A stretch of 59,236 nucleotides of DNA, filler included, from Platydemus manokwari (taxonomy: Eukaryota), in NCBI GenBank assembly GCA_037951405.1. It is 5 parts of 5 records of this genome, joined end to end, with 100 filler letters (N's around TTAATTAATTAA, not from the genome) between each part and the next. Parts side by side here need not be neighbours in the genome. Positions count along the whole stretch, not along the records: positions 38,068 to 49,458 come from JBBMOY010707762.1; 4 more parts are not named here. The stretch is one strand, 5' to 3'. The translations under genes were made by a program, and so were the position numbers. Positions 1,954-41,794 of this stretch are shown here, one piece after another (position 1 is the first letter of the stretch; each line of letters begins with the position of its first letter). The notes below the pieces were generated by a model, which was not told where the DNA came from, searched no databases, and saw only the letters and a program-made list of their open reading frames with translations.

Positions 1954-4329
1954 CTCCAATAGATGATAATAAGAACCCAATATTTAATGTATTAATAATA
2001 GCTGATAAAGCAACATTTAAATGCAAACTTATGAAAAAAATAATTTATTACTTTAGGATTGGTTTTAGGATTCCAAAAATTATAAAGAATATTGTTTTGA
2101 AACTTATTTAGTTGAAAATAAAATAAATATTTCCGATATTACAGCAATAAGCTTTCTCAAGAACAACAAAAATATTAAACAAATTACGTTTAAAATTACT
2201 GACAAAAATGAAAATTTATTAGATTTTAATGGTGAAGAAATATAAATGAGACCTCATTTAAAACAAGTTTGACGCCTTACGCCTTCATCTTAAACAAGTG
2301 TTACTGAGGTCGCCAAGGGCATATTTTAATTTTTAGAAAATAGTTTTAGATTTAATAAGTGTTGTAGCAAAATATGGAACTAATAAGAGATGAGTCGAAA
2401 TAAATGAGTTAAATAAAGCTAATAATAAAAATTGACATTCTCCATATTATTAAGAAATTACAATAAATAAAGGTTCTCAATGAGTTTTAATAAATAAAGC
2501 TCATCGATTTGATCCTGACTGCCCTTTGGACACATATTTTGATCCTTATGGAATTTTATCAACAAAGATGCTTATGATTTCTTCGGAGAATAAAAATTTA
2601 TTATCAGTAGCAGCTGCGGTATAATAAAATAAAATAATAGTTAAAATACAATCTGATGAAGAATTGTGTGAACAATTATTAATATATGTTTTGTACTGTT
2701 TAGGAGAATTTTAAAATATAGTAATGTCAGTACAAGTTTCGAATAATCGTTAATAAATCTCATGTTTTGGTGAAAATTATATTTATATAATGTTTAAATA
2801 GCGGATTCAAGTTGTTGTGGGTGAAGTGAAATGGTTTTGAAATTAAAGTGTACTATTTGAAAACTCTTAAGTAAATATATAATTTGATTATGATGAGCTA
2901 CATATCATTGATGCTTATCCAGCATAATTTTTCTGAGAACACATCTCAGTTTCAAATCAAACCAAAACCATGCGTTTATATTTGATTGTATCGGGAATTT
3001 CAATCAAGTCTTTACAAGGGGTTTCTATGACGATGGAGCTGTAAACTTTTCATGGAATTTTTAGATAGTTTTCAAAATCGTTCTGACATCAAATACCACA
3101 AGACCTTTAAAACAAAATATCGATTTTAATTATAACATAATTCTCATATCTCCCAGACAGAATTTACAAACGAAATTTTCCAACTACAGACAGTTCATTT
3201 TTTATGTGATTTATCACTTATTACAGCTTCATTGTTAAAAGTAAAGGAAATTCCTGAATTTGGATGAAAGAATTTTATTTGTTGAAAAATATTTAACATA
3301 AAATAGATCAAGACAGGAGTTAGAAAAAAATTTTATCATTCAATACAAAAAATTATTTATCACGTTTTTACCAATTATCGAGTGATCCTTGGATTTACCA
3401 TTGGAATTGCAGCTTGTGTTATGTGAAGTCTTGGGGAATGTATCAACCGCATGAATTGATAACAGTTACTACTCCCAACAAACCACCTCTTTATATCTTT
3501 CACGAAGTTATTCATTCATAACAAGTGCTTATTGCCCGTTATTCGTAAATTTAACTCTATTAAATGTTTTGTTTTAGTTTTCTATATTCGAATTTTTTGA
3601 GATCATCATGAACTAGTTTCTTTCAAAAATTCTATTGTTTTTCACACAAAGATTCGCATTGGAATTATTTACATAAATAAGCCACATTTCATCGTCAATT
3701 GATTTGATTATCTAACATGCTATTGGTGAAAAAGCTGATATTCCATAATAATAGTTTTTAGTTTAAAATAATAATTTCAAACATGAATAAAATTCTTCCA
3801 ACGATTGGTCCATTGAATGACCGAAAAGTGTGATAGTACTGTTTTCTCGACTATTGAATTGTACTTTTCGGTATATATTCCTCTGAATGACTGATGTGTT
3901 TATACCTCTAAATGGACGTCAACCCAGTGAGCATTTAAAATTTATTTTTTATTTTGGATTGTAATGGTAAAGAATTAAATTATTTCTTCATCTCACGAGT
4001 TTTTTTGGCATTGAATTTTAATATAAATTTTTGCAAAATTTTATAAAATTATTTTTAGCTCTTCAACAAATTCCCCATTAGATATTTGTCGTCTCCTCAG
4101 TATCCTTGCTAATTTCCGTAATAATTCATTACACCATTATTTATTCATAAACATTGATAATCGAGATACTCATACATTAAAATATAAGATATAGATGGTT
4201 CGTTCCTTGGATCGTTCCATTGTTCACAGTTCGTTACTTCTATCATACAATCAATTCTCTCTCCGCCTTCTAGTCACTGTTGTCTGGGATATCTTCTTCC
4301 CATATTTTAACACTGCCTTTGTTGCTATT

Positions 4330-7100
4330 CTCTTTCTTTCATTGCAAATAGATTAGAGGGGTTGACTGAAAGGTGAACAGGAATTCTATTCTTAACTTTT
4401 CGGTGAATGGAATGTAGGATGATATGGGCAGCTATTTGGTCAAAAGTTGGCCGATAGTTTTTTTTCAGTTAGAACAAATATTATTGTCTCAGTTTGAAGT
4501 TTGAAGTTGCTTGGGCGGCAAAATGTAAGATCGAAGGCTTAATTGATTTTCTGTCGATAAACGAGTTGGATGAATTGTGGTGATTGCTTGACGAACGCTT
4601 TCAAGAATTTGAATGAGGTGTGGGGAGTCGAGATCAATTAGTTTCATAGGGTGAATGGTAGTTATAGATGAGATTGAGTTGCTGGAATTAGTTTTAATAA
4701 ATAGGGGGGATGTTTAATATAACTCTGTTGATCTCATTCTGTAGGTCTGGATCTATTGCGGTATGGGAGGTAGATGACTAAACAATTTAATCCCGTATGT
4801 GTTGAATGTTAAGTGTAGAGAAAAGGTGAGTCTTAATAACTAGCAGGCTTTGAAATAGGGAGTTTTTTGGTATAAACTTAGATAAAAAGTAGAGGGATCG
4901 ATAAAAAACGATTTAGATTTATTAATTCCAGTGGCTATCATTCCAGGGAATCAGATAAAATTATATTTACCTGTTATATTTGTTAATTCTGGACAAAGGA
5001 TAAGAATATGTTTCGGACCGAATTTGAATTTTGCGAATCGGTCATCAAGCAAGAACCACCATAGAGCTTGGTAAGGTGTTGGTTCATGATAGTGGAGCAA
5101 GGAGTTGGTGAATGTTAAAGAGAATCATGAAAGGCATTCGATGACGGAATCTAAGTCAAAGCCGGACAGTGCGTGTCCATATGATAGGAAGATAGATGAT
5201 TGTGTAAGGAGGATTTCGTCTGGATCAACACTTGGCATGATAGACAATATCATGATCAAAGGTGATGGAGGGATTTGGTAAGGCATGGGATTTTATTCGT
5301 GATAATGGAGAGTTGAACAGGTAAGTAAGAGTTTATTTGTGGGGGGATTGTTAGGTTATGATTAAAATTATTATGATTGATAGATGATAATGAATGGTTA
5401 GGGCACGGTGATGGTTTTGTGTGATTAAGTAATTTGGAGGTGCTAACATAGTGCATTAGTGATGTAATATTATTATTATAGAATAACGATGTTGGAGCTA
5501 TTTTTATGGGTTTTATATTAAAAATACTGCTGGTAGGATGCTTTGTATTGGTGTATTTCTCTTGGTATTGGGTATTTTTCTTCAAAATCTGATTAGCCTA
5601 CATAGCTTAATGTGAAATCAGTGGGTCAAAGGTCAGTATTATTGATTTGGTTGTTATTAATCATGGATATGGGGTCAAAATGTTGTAAGAAATGAGGACG
5701 TTATTAGGTAATATAGATACATCTTGTGATTGTTGGTTATGTGGATGATTGTCTTTGGGGGCACTTCATGTTATGTCAATCGAAAAAGGATTTTTAAATT
5801 GTTTCCAGTGAGTTTAGACAGCTTTTATGATGTCATTCGTTTTTACGAAGCATGTGGTGCAACAGCACATTGATACTGAAGTGATATGTTGATGGACCTT
5901 GTCTCGTTAAGGGTTAGATGAAACGTATAATAGATGAGTCACGGAGTAGATTGTATGGATGCTGTCTTTGTTAATTTTTGAGGGAATCATATATTAACTT
6001 GCAAAAATTTACAAAGCAATTAGAGCATTTGCACTCAATATGTTGTAGAGTTTCAAATGCAATCGATAATTTGGAATTGTTGAAATAACCAAGAAACGCT
6101 GTACAAGTTTCTCGCGAGAATGGACAAAGGTTCGTTTCTTGGAGAGCAGGTAGTATGGAAAACATTTTAGGGAAATCTTAGGATTCTTTGTAGAGAAAAC
6201 ATTGTTTTTAGTTCAAATATTGGGCTCACTGTGAATTAGATCGTCGAAAAGAAGCTATCGAGAGATTTAAAATATTATTTACAGGTTATACAAATGTAAG
6301 CTAAGAAATTTATATAATTTATGAGAAGGAAGATTAAACCTAGATTACAACCCCATTTGGGATGTTTAATTTTGGCAATTTTGAGGTAATTTGAAAGTAT
6401 TTGATGTTAGGCTTGGTATTTAGAAGTAGAGGTGAGACGATACTGTTACGCCGGTTTAGTTTTAGTAGATTATGATAAACAGGTTGATGACAAATTTAGT
6501 GGGCCAGATTGGTGTAGATTAGGGCTAGAATTTGGATTGGTACGACCACTATAACGTGGCCTATAAGGTCTGGCCCGTTGGTTTGAAGTATCAAAACTGT
6601 TAATATTAGTGACATGGTAGTTTATTGCTTGATGATAATAAGTATAAGATTAATTATGTACTGAAGCATGTCGACCACTAAGCTGGTTGCTTCAAGGTGG
6701 AGTAGATGAGGTCTCTCTGGTAACAACAAGTATAGAATCTGAAAAAGCATTATTAGTGTCGTCATTATTGTAATATTTTGGCTTATGGTATTGTCGATCA
6801 ACATTTGCTGAATGTTTTACGTCATTTAGAACATTAAGGGAAGACCACCGCTTCTGGAAGTAGATGTTTGCTGGTGAATCTTTAGTTTACTCAGGGGTGG
6901 AAGATATCGAGTGGAATTATAAGGTCTTCCGTGATAACATGTTCGCCAATCTGTGATATATTAAAACGAATTCGAAGGGGGTATATCATTAGATTGAAAT
7001 CATATATTCTCGTTCACTATGTATTGGTTGATAGGCACCATTATGGTTTTTATATCTAGAGAAATTGTGCTGGTGTTGAGATAATAACATTTTATTTCTC
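4330..7100 (-). pseudogene. Long decayed ORF relic of unknown (TE/virus-like) origin
   Basis: Higher GC with a C-rich minus strand. Long protein-like stretches are broken by stops and frameshifts and include ORF-track pieces 5256-5585 and 5971-6165, a basic RARPYRPRYSGR segment and two CxCxxCFV motifs. Confidence 0.4.
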
Positions 7101-10100
7101 AGCTTAATATTTTTTGACTAAATTTCTCTAGTGGTTAATCTCCGGATGGTGACGTAGAGTGCCAATGACAACATTTCAGGGATAAAAGGGATAATGGTTT
7201 TGATAATAGATACATATGTTTGTTAAGGAGATATAGCCTGTTGCTGAGACACCTCAAATTTCAGTACCCAGAGTTATAACAGTTAGTTTAATAATAATTC
7301 AATTTCCCAAGAAGAAATTCAATATATCTTCCAGTGGAAAAACCAGTTATTGTTGGACCCGTAATGGAGGAAGATTGATAATTTGAACAAGTTAATTCAC
7401 TTTCCGAGTTCTGTTTGGCTCACTTTGTCCTCCAGTCTGGAGTGATAACTCCAAATAACACTTTTTTCGTCTACGTCAGTGTCGTAATTCTTTCTTGCAC
7501 TTACGCGGCCTAGTTAAACAAAAAGAATTCACAAAATGATAAAATGAAAACTTCGGGAGATAAATCTTCAAATAACAAGTCAAAAAACAAAGATTCCTGA
7601 ATGTGTACGATTTTAAAAACAGTTTATGTACCCATATAAATCTTGTTGGAGAAAACGTGAAGCCGTTTTCGAAATCAGAAAGGAGTATATTAGTAACCGA
7701 AAAGTCATGATAGTAGTACTCGTAGTATCCTGATCTTCACAATCGATTACAAAACATTTCACAAATTCAGCTCCACATCGCGTACCGAAGGTGAACAATA
7801 TTTTTAAAATTATATCGATTACGACATTGAAATAAGCGGTCATCATAATTTCTATTAATTGGTGAAGGCAGGCAGAAATAGTTCATTTAAACAAGCATTG
7901 AATTACTTAATAAAAATTTCTGCAGCTGCATTTACTCATCCTAGTAATTTCCTAGTAACTATAATTTTTTAAATGTGTTTTTATACTTCTTTTTTCTTGA
8001 ATTTCTGTCTTCAGGCTCCGCTCTACCATTGGTTTAAAATATAAGTCAAGAAAATAATCAAATTAATTTTAAAAGATTGAGCTTAGTCAGTCAAAAGCAA
8101 TTCCGAATATGAGTTCTGTTGATGAATTCTAATATTACGCAGATTTACATAGACATCGAATAGCAAATATTGGCCGTTATTACCGGTCCGATTTACCGTT
8201 AATTTAACTGATTACTTTTATTGTTTGAGTCCCGGATTATTTTCCCCAACAATACATCTTATTTTTATTCATTTACATTTATTTAAGGACCGCTTTTTGA
8301 GTGACTCATTCAACCTGATCATTGGATTCATTCCACATTCCCATTGGTTGTGCTTTATTTATTATTTATACCCTTTAAAATCCCCACTTAATTGTTGAGC
8401 CATTACCTTATTTTATAATTTGGATCGTGAATTCATATATCATCCTTCGTTTGCTGATGGAATTGATTGTTCAGTAACTTTACTTCAACATGTTGAGTGG
8501 GGAGGTGACAATAACAATAATAATAATAAACTTCCAATGTGGAATCTCCTAAAATCCATTACAAGTCTTAAGAAGAAATCGACAGTTATGGTTAGCAGAT
8601 TCTCGCACTATAAACTTCCAATTGAAACAAGGAATGGCCGGGTATAAAATCCCAAATTCAAATATAATTTAGTCTTGGATAAGAGTTCCTGAGAAAATTT
8701 ATTCCATCTTTGATATTTTTTATATTCATTTTACTTGCAGATAGATTTGAATGCTCTTGAATGATTATTTCAGAAATCTCAACAATTGATGCGGACGAAG
8801 CTATTACTTTTGTGGAAATAATCCCATTACCAGTGTCTATTGTTTTACAAAATGGAAACTATGAAGTTAGTTGTCATACATAATGACATGAGCGTCTTAT
8901 ATAACAAAATAGATTTACAAATCTATAACCAAATATATCACCAGTGTGCTTTCCAAAGCAATTAATGACCAAATTGAATAGGCTATACTTACAAATTAAA
9001 ACAAAACTGATCGATTAGATAGTTAGTATTTATTTTCTCTTATCATACACATCGCAACTGAAAGTGTGAAAGATATTCAAGTTAGAAAAAACGCACATTG
9101 CCCTTATAAAAAACTCCTCTTAACCACCACATTTTTCCAATTTCCCCAAAGTGACGGTTTGGAGGAGGACTACTGTACAAGTCAAGTGAATTTAAAGCAC
9201 ACGAATAAAAACATACTGAGTTCGCCAGGACAATGAATCGAAAAGGTTTGAGCCTGAGTTAATGTATGATAATTCAATGCGAGTATGCCAGGTACAAAAT
9301 ATTTCCATCTCACAAATTTCCAGTACATCACCTGCACAAACTGGCGATAGTCAGTATAATTTTACATCCGGTTTATGTTTTGTCTGGTATGTATTTACTT
9401 CCTGACCCATTTCTTTGTGTGTCAGTATAATACACACATGATAATTGAGGTCAGTTTATAAGCAAATGATGACCACTCGTAAGTCATTTAATTACCAAGA
9501 AGATTTAGAAAATAGTTTTGTATAATTTTTTAATTTAATTTTTACTTATAAATATGTTGAAGTGGTTTTTATTTATCGTCACAGTTTTGGCAAATGTTAC
9601 TTCCAAGTCATAGGGTCCAGCACAAATCATTAAAAAATAAAAAAATCAATTCAACTTATTTCAGGGAATTCAGGCTCAAATTTTTACTATGAATGGAGAT
9701 ATTGTAATGAATCAGATTATCGAAAAATTTTTCTCGTCTGTTATCATAGCTAGCAATCAGATTTTTCATGGAAAATTATAAATTTATTGTTCTGAACTGT
9801 TCCATGTCGAATGATCATAGTGCATAGGTATTTTATGATACTCAAAAAACACGAGGATTGGAGTCGCAAAATTTGGTTTACAAAGTACGCTATAAAATAA
9901 CAATTTGTTGCAACCTTTGATCGAAACTTCAATTACTTCTCGTCACATGATATGCCAGTATTAAAGTATATTTTGTCATGATTATTTCTCCAGAGAAATT
10001 TCCATATTTTTTAATCGAAAAATCCATGATGTGAAACCAAGTTTTCATACCGAAAATAATAATATTCATACCGGAATTAACTCTAGTATGTATCAATAAT

Positions 10101-19345: not shown

Positions 19346-19445
19346 NNNNNNNNNNNNNNNNNNNNNNNNNNNNNNNNNNNNNNNNNNNNTTAATTAATTA
19401 ANNNNNNNNNNNNNNNNNNNNNNNNNNNNNNNNNNNNNNNNNNNN
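19346..19445. other. Assembly gap/linker (N44-TTAATTAATTAA-N44)
   Basis: Identical 100-nt structure at four sites; TTAATTAATTAA has stops in all six frames. Confidence 0.98.
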
Positions 19446-28302: not shown

Positions 28303-28402
28303 NNNNNNNNNNNNNNNNNNNNNNNNNNNNNNNNNNNNNNNNNNNNTTAATTAATTAANNNNNNNNNNNNNNNNNNNNNNNNNNNNNNNNNNNNNNNNNN
28401 NN
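28303..28402. other. Assembly gap/linker
   Basis: N44-TTAATTAATTAA-N44. Confidence 0.98.
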
Positions 28403-37967: not shown

Positions 37968-38067
37968 NNNNNNNNNNNNNNNNNNNNNNNNNNNNNNNNN
38001 NNNNNNNNNNNTTAATTAATTAANNNNNNNNNNNNNNNNNNNNNNNNNNNNNNNNNNNNNNNNNNNN
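37968..38067. other. Assembly gap/linker
   Basis: N44-TTAATTAATTAA-N44. Confidence 0.98.
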
Positions 38068-38689
38068 GCAACAACTATAAAAAACTCTATTCTATATAAT
38101 ATGAAAGTCGATTGGTTTTTATCAAAATTCATGTCCTATCAAAGGCGGAAGACTGTCCAATATATTATTATTTGGTAACATTTAATTCATACATTTTTTG
38201 TTTAAAGCGCATTCAGTCTTATTACTGACTATCAAGTTAACTTTCGATATTTTTGCTTAATTCATTGTTTTACATGAAAAACTGACAGATATTATCAATG
38301 GTATCACATAATAATTATAAGTACAACAAAAAAATCAGAAACCAGAAAATGACAAAATATAACATATCATCTGATTTTATGCACGTTACTTAGTTTAAAA
38401 TGCATCTAAAATATTACATTACTTAAAAGCCGATGAATATTTTACAATTTAATAATTATATTTTGAGAGAATGTCATTTAGCCAGAAAGAATAGCTACAC
38501 AAGTCTGAGGAGAATACTGTGCATCCATGACGAAGAAGAAAAAGCCGATATTCAAACCGAAAGTGAAGCTGATGGATTCTCAAGGATAGGCGAAGCATTT
38601 TTTTCAAAACGCTGAACTCAGTACCAGACAGCCAGAGAAGGTAAACCAAAAACTCGGTTTATAAATGTTGTCGGGGTTTCATTGCAGCT

Positions 38690-40160
38690 TTTACTTCGAC
38701 CGATACATGTCCCATCTGTTCAAATTTTACCTCCGCGTGTTATGGTTTCAGCAAGTTTCTGGCATACTTCCGCTGTGAGAGTGACCTAGCTGTCGACTCT
38801 GTGTTCACCTTGGCAAGCTTCAGGTGCGAGTGTGATACTACGAGCAATAAGTTTGGCATCTAATACGGATGAGCGACTAAAGGCTCCGCAGTAGCATTCG
38901 AATGAAGCCTTCGTGACCCTGCATTTCTTGATTGTAGTTCGATAAAATTCTAATTCCTGATACACGTAATAGGACTCCCGTGGTCCTTGTATGACGGTGT
39001 TGACGTTGACTGCTGGACAATCGAAGAGATCAACGAATGAATAGATGGTGGACAGCTTGGGATTCGAACAATCATATGCAGTGAGCATAGATGTTTTTTC
39101 TATCAAACTGCATATGAGAATAACCTTTACCAGAGTGTTCATTAAACCATTATTGTTGAAGCTACCCAATCCTTCTGGGGTAAGTCGTCTGTTGCATTGT
39201 TTCCTGGTAGTGTGATGTGTCTCCGTAGGTCGAGATCATGATTTTGTGTGCCAGATTAATCAGTATGATTTTAGCTCTGGATGCGGTTATTCCATCTTTA
39301 ATAATTTACCATAACACGTTTTCTGAGTCAACGGTATGATGATCGTGTGTGATCAATTCCTTTCACTATTCGCAAGAGGCATTGTTGAATGTCTTGCTTG
39401 GAATTTTTAGTTGTGTTGTCCACCAGTCTTCGAGATCCACAATTTTTATGATTTCATCTGCGACCGGCTCAGGTGGCGGCGGAGATAGTTGTGTGTCATA
39501 CTCTGGCTGGTATTCAATGATTTGCGAGGTTTCTTGGGTGTCCTCATCCATGTCTACTGGTAACTGTGTCTTCACTCTCCCTGTTGCTGGCTTGAAGAGT
39601 GTGGGTACACGCCTCCATTTTTTGGATTCCACTGGCGTTGTTAGTACCTTTACTACTGTTATAAAATCTGGTAGGCAACCTACGTCAACTAGGTTCTCAT
39701 CATCATCTACCGGATTTGATTGAATTGTGATAATGAACGGCTCCGTGCTTGATTTTTCCTGTCTGATATCCTGCCTAAATTTGCGAACGTGTGTGAAGCA
39801 AGAGTATGTCTTTAGTCAGTTCCCGTGATGACTGGTCCGAATGTGCAGCGTGGGCATCGGTGCTTCTTGAGGTTGACTGCTAATGGCCAGCCCATTTCAT
39901 TGTAGGAGTAACTGTACTTCCTTTTGATAAATGGCTCCCTTGTCCAAGAAATCAATCTTTATTGGTGCGGCGGCAGCCAATACATCGGTAGGAACAGTAG
40001 TGTAAATGTGATTGTTTAGAATACTCTTGATTATTTGTTCGTCTGCATGGTTTATTTGAGCTTCCCTTACTAAGTTAATAGCGAACTGAGTCAATGTTGC
40101 TTGTTCCTCAGTTGTTAATTCAATAGTTGCGAGCACGTTCTCAGCGTGATTACTTGCGTG
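38690..40160 (-). pseudogene. Endogenous virus-like element copy 2: unknown N-terminal protein plus chuvirus-like glycoprotein N-terminus
   Basis: Hydrophobic LVKVILICSLI precedes LTAYDCSNPKLSTIYSFVDLFDCP..YQELE..KKCRVTKASFECYCGAFSRSS..GGKI*TDGTCIGR, the pattern of Jingchuvirales G (xYDC..SLxD..C..CxV..YCGxxSH..DGxCxG). The upstream part is colinear with 45.6-47.1 kb. Confidence 0.75.
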
Positions 40161-40337
40161 AGACTTTGTTTAGTTTCATTTGCCTTTTCAGTAAAGTAAA
40201 CAAATTTAAAAAGTAAAAAATTAATTAAGTAAAAAAGTAAACACGAGTAAAACAGTTGTTTAAATAAATAAAAACCGATCAGCACGAGAACAAATCAGTT
40301 GTTAAGTAAAACTAAATCAGACAATCAATAGCTAAGT

Positions 40338-40419
40338 AAAAACGAAGCAAAGACAAAGCCCATTTTGTAAAATATAAACAAACAAAGCAAAAACAAAGCC
40401 CATTTTGTAAAAATATAAC
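40338..40419. repeat. Two tandem ~40-bp direct repeats
   Basis: aagcaaa(g/a)acaaagcccattttgtaaaa(a)tataa occurs twice. Confidence 0.85.
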
Positions 40420-41360
40420 ACATTATGGGAAAATTTAAACAAACATATAAACAAAGCTGCGCTTTGTCCCTTGTCTCAAAACAGTCTCAAATTTTAATAA
40501 AATCACAAACAATCTTTTAATCAATCGTTATTATTGGTTTATTTTAAGATGATTACTTATATAACTATTGGTAATTCCATCTCTTATTTATCTATATCTC
40601 AATGGTTTTATCAATAATTTTCATTAACGTTGTTTAAATTTGCAAAGATTGATTATTTCGAGCCCAAATATCATCGAAATATTTATCTTCTAATATTATT
40701 CTGATTTTTGTGTAATTCTGATTTCTATAATTATTTCAAACCAAATTATTTTTCAATTTCCATTACCGAACTCTTAGAAAATAATATATTTAATGATTAA
40801 TTGAGTCAAATTAAATTTGATATTATATTATAATTATTATATTATTTTTGTATTATTTAAAATAAAAAATCATAATTTTAGAATTGAAATTTTTTATCCG
40901 AAATCAATGACTTGAACGATCACAAGTTGCAACAAAAATTAGCATCACCTTTGTTCTAAAAATTCCGCAAATAACGGTTTTTTTGCTATTAGTAATTCAT
41001 CTGAAATTTTGAAAAATAAAAACTTCTCTATCACAATTCTCATAATCATCATCATATCAACCGATATTTGAGACCAACAGTTTAAAATTCAGAAATTGCT
41101 AAATCTGTTAATAAACACATATTTTTTGTGACTGACACAGTATTATGTCAGTTTTCAAATTTCCACGTTTTCATTCAACAATAATAAATTAAAAAAATTA
41201 TAAATTATTGAAATTTTTAAGAAGCAATTCATTCAGAAACAAATGTTTGTTAAAAATTTACATGTGAAATATATTTACTCTATTTGAAACGTTCCACTTG
41301 GCAATATTCTGTACGCTTAACAATACTATAGTGCTCATAGTATTACCGCACACAGTCAAT

Positions 41361-41376
41361 CCAAATAATATAAATA
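41361..41376 (+). promoter_or_regulatory. TATA-containing element conserved upstream of both secreted-protein genes
   Basis: ccaaataatataaata is identical at 41361 and 43747, starting 56-57 nt upstream of each ATG. Confidence 0.6.
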
Positions 41377-41417
41377 AATAGCTTTCAGAAATATATTTCA
41401 TATTTTTTTTGATAATA

Positions 41418-41794
41418 ATGAAAATATTTATTATTTTTGCAACTTGTTTTCTAAGCTCAGTGTATTCCTATCTGATTCATGGTTACGGCTACATTGAAAA
41501 TGGTTATTATCATTACTTGATATATTTTGAATATTTATTTTTCATTATTTAAGGAAAAGGTTACTTTAAATTAGATGATAAAGTGTATCCAGATACAGTG
41601 GGACATTTCGAACATCGTGCTCAAGGTAGGTGTCTCAAATGCTCTGTTCGGCCATCTAAAGATGGTGTAGAAAAACCGCATTTCTCATGCGCTGGGTAAA
41701 TTTTATAATATTTAATATTTGATTCCAATATTCCTTTAGCCCTTCATTAGCTGTTTTAAACGGGAAAACACTATACATACCAGTTTGCAAATGA
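41418..41794 (+). CDS. Small secreted Cys-containing protein A, 93 aa; exons 41418-41502, 41554-41695, 41740-41794
   Basis: GT-AG introns of 51 and 44 nt give the open frame MKIFIIFATCFLSSVYSYLIHGYGYIENGKGYFKLDDKVYPDTVGHFEHRAQGRCLKCSVRPSKDGVEKPHFSCAGPSLAVLNGKTLYIPVCK*. It has a signal-peptide-like N-terminus, a downstream AATAAA and a paralog with identical intron positions. Confidence 0.85.

Follow-up and report, generated by a model that had tools for sequence, protein, structure and literature searches.

We analyzed a 59,236-nucleotide stretch of the Platydemus manokwari genome (assembly GCA_037951405.1; hereafter the window), which carries two decayed copies, A and B, of one protein-coding segment of a probable retroelement. 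The window consists of five contig pieces joined by linkers of the form N44-TTAATTAATTAA-N44 (19346-19445, 28303-28402, 37968-38067, and 49459-49558), and its overall GC content is ~25%. Since the five pieces are unrelated, adjacency across the linkers is meaningless. Both copies lie within the 11.4-kb piece at 38068-49458. Copy A runs on the minus strand from 40170 to ~38693, where a first-pass annotation of this stretch had placed it, and copy B occupies ~45540-48107 on the plus strand, with a further tail to ~49150. The copies point apart, with 5 kb of AT-rich DNA between them, and survive as fragments of 1.5 kb (A) and 2.6 to 3.6 kb (B). With a probability of roughly 0.88, we read them as nonfunctional, truncated remnants of two subfamilies of Ty3/gypsy GAG-ENV-POL elements (Burro/GYPSM1-like “errantiviruses” with a gB-type Env). 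The surviving part would be the accessory-to-Env segment, namely a four-helix domain, a ubiquitin-like domain, an acidic linker, a Bcl-2-like region, a signal stretch, and a class III fusogen (Table 1).

Table 1. Features of copies A and B, in reading order (HMM, hidden Markov model; BH, Bcl-2 homology; P numbers denote database relatives)
Copy	Feature	Position	Strand	Basis
A	Four-helix domain, first half of shared module	39876..40100	-	HMM from database relatives matches 40052-39612
A	Integral ubiquitin/SUMO-like domain, one in-frame stop	39633..39860	-	Motif DDDE(Y/N)L(I/V)D(C/V/I)GC; C-terminal Gly-Gly absent
A	Acidic, proline-rich linker	39462..39632	-	Direct reading
A	Degraded Bcl-2-like region, three stops	39158..39461	-	Colinear with B; BH1-like DGITASR, BH2-position NRRLTPEG
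A	Hydrophobic signal-like stretch	39080..39142	-	Best 11-residue hydropathy 2.83; 18 residues before AYDC
A	First ~130 residues of gB-type (class III) Env, truncated	38693..39079	-	PF24664 E 5.1e-11
B	Remnant of extra upstream ubiquitin-like repeat	45537..45635	+	Linked tblastn piece to P0005 95-128; Pfam ubiquitin E 0.1
B	Four-helix domain, frameshift at end	45748..45978	+	HMM i-E 2.9e-07
B	Ubiquitin-like domain, one stop	45987..46190	+	HMM i-E 8.8e-15; 44% to P0005 over 72 aa
B	Long acidic linker	46250..46583	+	Direct reading
B	Bcl-2-like region, several stops, BH2-like IEPWMNRRFGW at end	46584..47021	+	P0011 C-terminal domain, z 7.3
B	Signal-like stretch	47076..47138	+	Hydropathy 1.69; 21 residues before AFDC; in frame with Bcl-2-like end and Env
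B	N-terminal half of gB-type Env, three frame pieces, truncated	47139..48107	+	PF24664 E 4.6e-09, 2.7e-05
B	Tail, element-like composition	48108..49150	+	GC 0.40, A-rich strand

The first-pass annotation had described B as a colinear, highly divergent second copy of A, similar at the protein level alone, and both points were borne out. With A as the query, the Env (G) part was recovered from the window by tblastn (E 1.4e-13), while blastn of A against B gave no nucleotide match. The non-G part before Env reached only E 1.4 by plain tblastn because the coding sequence of copy B is divided between two frames. Once X was substituted for stops and for B's single frameshift, the alignment of the first ~190 residues of A and B scored 103, whereas shuffles averaged 30 (z 15). 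None of 1000 full shuffles and none of 1000 window shuffles reached this score, with similar results under other gap costs or matrices, so the nonsignificance under shuffling that was said to speak against the homology did not occur for these residues. Identity over this stretch was 40/175 aligned residues (23%). For an independent control, the six frames of the window were searched with an HMM built from 12 database relatives alone. It matched A with an independent E value (i-E) of 1.2e-29 and B in two pieces (8.8e-15 and 2.9e-07), with one chance row at i-E 6.

The individual motifs quoted for this alignment were more uneven. INKEIYN is not a motif of B, which has a stop two codons before KEIYN. 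The pair RVPTLFKP/RPVSLYYP does align, but it is not kept in the relatives and is therefore no family motif. The pair beginning GITASRAKI..YQETM is colinear but borderline alone (23/1000 shuffles, or 51/1000 with other bounds). In copy A, NRRLTPEG stands in a different frame from YQETM, with a frameshift and a gap of ~15 codons relative to B. A shuffle test of the P0006 tail against A used the wrong frame and was disregarded.

The shared module at the start of both copies has two halves. In the predicted structure of the relative P0005, to which the HMM ties both copies, the first half is a block of four helices (predicted local distance difference test score [pLDDT], 82 to 94) and the second a beta-grasp/ubiquitin fold. 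Comparison of this fold with integral ubiquitin-like domains gave root mean square deviations of 1.6 to 2.8 Å over 72 to 80 residues at 5 to 22% identity. The predicted domain thus shares the beta-grasp fold with the Rad23/ubiquilin/BAG6/parkin type and with SUMO-like domains. Unlike these domains, it carries a motif of its own in the element family, DDDEYLxDxGC, and a four-helix domain always precedes it where the relative is long enough to judge. No Gly-Gly follows the last strand in A, B, or the aligned relatives, which argues against a conjugatable ubiquitin-like modifier. Reading L(V/I)D(V/I)GC as an aspartyl protease or S-adenosylmethionine methyltransferase motif was rejected, as it corresponds to the part of the ubiquitin fold with the 3-10 helix. 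The module occurs twice in P0005, and copy B likewise repeats it in remnant form.

The non-G part had been proposed as an uncharacterized, possibly capsid- or matrix-like domain. The latter idea is not supported, as the module follows the Gag core and zinc knuckles in 3/3 long relatives (P0010, P0011, and P0014), its second half is predicted to fold as ubiquitin, and the region just ahead of Env resembles Bcl-2. No nucleoprotein, capsid, or matrix chain appeared in the fold lists, although these were filled by the ubiquitin-like half. The term “uncharacterized” still fits the four-helix half, which has no assigned family, but not the ubiquitin-like half, which matches an annotated type and stands in a domain order published for Burro. 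A match to a well-annotated protein, named in advance as counting against the proposal, was accordingly found for the second half and not for the first. The four-helix domain gave no Pfam match (6/6 rows) and no natural PDB match of note. A resemblance to a TFIIS N-terminal or LEDGF IBD-like bundle found no support: PF08711 and the rest of Pfam matched 0/6 rows, and the model has four helices versus the five of the TND fold. The absence of TFIIS-N from fold lists dominated by the ubiquitin-like half is not a test of the helical half. The non-G pieces of the window had no credible match in sequence searches of Pfam, NCBIfam, and PDB, and word-indexed homologue searches among longer proteins only (A non-G, B Env, and alignment A3) gave nothing. 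In the linker after the module, 4/12 relatives (P0010, P0011, P0012, and P0014) have an AT-hook-like (K/R)RGRP, which was not seen in A or B.

The Env of both copies matched PF24664 (Monjiviricetes_fusion), with truncation after ~130 residues in A and after about half of the protein in B. Copy A was 35% identical to the P0014 Env over 130 amino acids (E 7e-18), and each Env piece of copy B also matched it (0/200 shuffles). We compared the best-kept Env stretch by hand with the six Schmidtea errantiviruses whose partial Env sequences are given in supplementary file 2 of PMC13524379; among these six rows, A was identical to Smed_4 at 29/53 positions and B to Smed_1 at 24/48 and Smed_4 at 23/48. 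This likeness makes a planarian host likely, and the sequence is that of an animal with short introns. In both copies, the NRR motif, the hydrophobic stretch, and A(Y/F)DC lie in a single stop-free frame, and therefore the upstream region and Env were once one polyprotein. The relatives P0010, P0011, and P0014 have a Gag core and CCHC knuckles upstream, with the module fused to Gag. In P0014, Env comes before the proteases, and the Gag hint is Retrotrans_gag. Downstream of Env, P0014 has four aspartyl protease repeats (1557-2200).

These arrangements bear on two other origins. A chu-like/mononegavirus genome segment could have integrated directly, with the non-G part as its nucleoprotein or matrix gene; PF24664 is a glycoprotein family of negative-strand RNA viruses, and the contig piece contains no retroelement enzyme. 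However, both copies have the upstream region and Env in one frame, the relatives of that region are joined to Gag zinc knuckles and proteases (P0014 largely refutes this origin), and the ubiquitin-like fold, with no nucleoprotein, capsid, or matrix chain in the lists that this half dominates, does not fit such genes. A gB-type Env is also common in gypsy elements (PMC13524379). We consider the chance of a direct viral integration close to negligible. Remnants of a BEL/Pao element with a captured chuvirus glycoprotein, which we take to be of the Anakin kind, are very improbable. The same glycoprotein family does occur in mosquito BEL/Pao elements, as cited in PMC13524379, but the position of Env before the proteases in P0014 corresponds to the GAG-ENV-POL order of flatworm, nematode, and bryozoan gypsy elements, which carry only gB-type Env (PMC13524379). 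The Retrotrans_gag hint also disfavors BEL/Pao, with the class assigned without a reverse transcriptase (RT) to place on a tree.

Between the linker and Env, both copies have what is probably a Bcl-2-like domain. Copy B matched the C-terminal domain of P0011 with a score reached in 0/1000 shuffles (z 7.3). Copy A, tested alone, was matched or exceeded by 253/1000 shuffles against P0011 and 51/1000 against B, and its assignment follows from its colinearity with B. Copy A, with a frameshift and gap near 39195 in this region, is also one row of the three-row profile A4. With this profile, Bcl-xL/Bcl-2 made up 58/60 of the listed PDB matches, the best being Bcl-xL at E 0.011 with BH1 and BH2 aligned; Pfam Bcl-2 was found at E 0.019, ranked behind two unrelated families. 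The model of the region was poor (pLDDT 48.9). Foldseek with this low-confidence model returned Bcl-2-family proteins in 40/40 rows at E 0.036 to 0.15, none below 0.036, and a wide structural search was uninformative, with Bcl-2 entries ranking 25th, 33rd, and 45th. Like Bcl-xL, Mcl-1, and BHRF1, the region has BH1-like DG and BH2-like PW/Y...GW motifs at matching spacing and a hydrophobic stretch ~20 to 26 residues after the BH2-position motif. Unlike them, it does not keep NWGR, lies within a polyprotein, and has a predicted fold only. Of this domain, no more than the last motif is left in P0014 (721/1000 shuffles); P0014 has a BH2-like GEW at copy B's distance before AYDC, with the remainder missing.

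The proposal that two distant members of one family inserted independently is supported by the nearest relatives of A and B, the decay of both copies, and a tree. Over the ubiquitin-like domain, the nearest relative of A is P0006 (32/81 identical) and that of B is P0005/P0008 (32/72), whereas A and B share just 13/72. A tree of 14 ubiquitin-like domains put the copies on opposite sides at 90/88, with no starred branch. Stop codons number 7/481 in A and 11/822 in B, and a rough neighbor count gave a decay of ~0.11 (A) and ~0.08 (B) substitutions per site. This is too slight for 23% protein identity without a blastn match, and duplication of one copy after insertion, followed by drift, was therefore rejected. 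From these comparisons, the two copies would represent separate insertions of two subfamilies.

Neither a gag core, pol, nor a long terminal repeat (LTR) was found at either copy in the contig piece, and no repeat pair flanks A or B within it. The copies are thus dead and would make nothing. Instead of random pieces of full-length elements, the fragments might be a nonautonomous cassette or derive by retrocopying from a shorter accessory-Env message, spliced or subgenomic. Both start at or just before the module with no gag core upstream, P0006 and P0013 likewise begin at the module, and the T-rich leader upstream of A contains a short tandem duplication (40350-40420, ~45-nt spacing). Yet there are two cases only, the 3' ends are also cut, each at its own point, and neither a poly(A) tract nor a target-site duplication was identified. 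In addition, database proteins starting at the module could be open reading frame (ORF) calls on broken copies, and the module is fused to Gag in P0010, P0011, and P0014. We regard a retrocopy origin as unlikely.

The tail of copy B had no match to the C-terminal half of Env or the proteases of P0014 and no credible Pfam match. By eye, it contains a nuclear localization signal-like PSTSKRIKLEE and an RNase H-end-like NVVADHI, without database support; a reading as an RNase H end or integrase start was dropped, as the Pfam and P0014 comparisons gave nothing. Between A and B lie two paralogous small genes on the plus strand (41418-41800 and 43803-44190; 66% DNA identity over 761 nt), each with two ~50-nt introns and encoding ~95 residues with a signal-like start and several cysteines. 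Elsewhere in the window, the decayed remains of a non-LTR retrotransposon occupy 51400-53900 (plus strand); in it, a protease of the Ulp1 type (PF02902, E 0.0034) precedes the RT (E 4.8e-17), as in NeSL-like elements. The region at 4000-7400 has higher GC and a strong G-skew and resembles a decayed element, and a six-frame Pfam search of it gave no match.

An intact element would encode one long polyprotein running from the Gag core and zinc knuckles through accessory host-like domains and Env to the protease and the rest of Pol. It would be cut by the element's own protease and by signal peptidase. From the anatomy and general retroelement biology, the Gag core and nucleocapsid would build the particle, the signal stretch would thread Env into the endoplasmic reticulum, and the class III fusogen would let particles enter neighboring cells. 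Because it has no Gly-Gly end, the ubiquitin-like domain would act as a docking module and not as a conjugated tag. In our view, there is about an even chance that the Bcl-2-like domain holds back host cell death in cells producing particles; such a role has also been proposed in outline (PMC6431247).

A further scheme is speculative and, we think, doubtful. After cleavage by signal peptidase, the Env signal segment would stay on the upstream product and could be the tail anchor of an antiapoptotic Bcl-2 mimic; cellular Bcl-2 proteins have a similar spacing from BH2 to the tail anchor. The four-helix plus ubiquitin-like module could be a new adaptor recruiting a host chromatin or proteasome factor, possibly from its own shorter message. 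If true, this would be a retrotransposon with cell-death control in the style of large DNA viruses.

The locus itself carries little weight, being two dead fragments of an element type already described. Its by-products are a testable hypothesis, in which the Bcl-2-like domain is anchored by the Env signal segment, and a more precise annotation of the accessory region of Burro-type elements, with a conserved four-helix plus ubiquitin-like module and its diagnostic motif. This module is common to very distant subfamilies and persists even where most of the Bcl-2-like domain has been lost. PMC6431247 calls the host action of the Burro apoptosis and ubiquitin domains worthy of experimental confirmation, and we found no later work on it in the literature searched.

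Copies A and B add two fossils to a known type of element. Burro/GYPSM1 elements are reportedly giant gypsy-like LTR retrotransposons of planarians, up to 30 kb long and with a Ty3/gypsy RT-RH-IN, said to have been described by Jurka in 2007 and Grohme in 2018. Like Smed_errantivirus_1-6, the elements have Env upstream of Pol, with about half of the best-kept Env residues identical; PMC13524379 labels everything before Env “GAG,” and its main text, in the places shown, has no “ubiquitin” or “apoptosis” and has “bcl” just inside “subclade.” According to section 7 of PMC6431247 (Arkhipova and Yushenova 2019), Burro/GYPSM1 ORF1 is ~4,900 residues long and carries Gag with knuckles, MATH, BIR, ankyrin, and Ubi2/SUMO-like domains before BCL-2; Env follows in frame between BCL2 and the protease and matches mononegavirus fusion proteins. 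Decayed Burro fragments with stops and frameshifts are described there from Dugesia japonica, and Burro elements are PIWI targets (PMC8532177). Our domain order was derived independently, before comparison with this description, on which, and not on a direct Burro sequence match, the likeness of the non-Env region rests. Unlike the Burro/GYPSM1 elements described in PMC6431247, the A and B fragments have no MATH, BIR, or ankyrin domain, gag core, pol, or LTRs, and the text of section 7 of PMC6431247 does not name a four-helix domain before the ubiquitin-like domain. As in Burro/GYPSM1, a predicted Ubi/SUMO-like domain stands upstream of a probable BCL2-like domain, Env follows in frame, and the protease comes after Env in the relatives.
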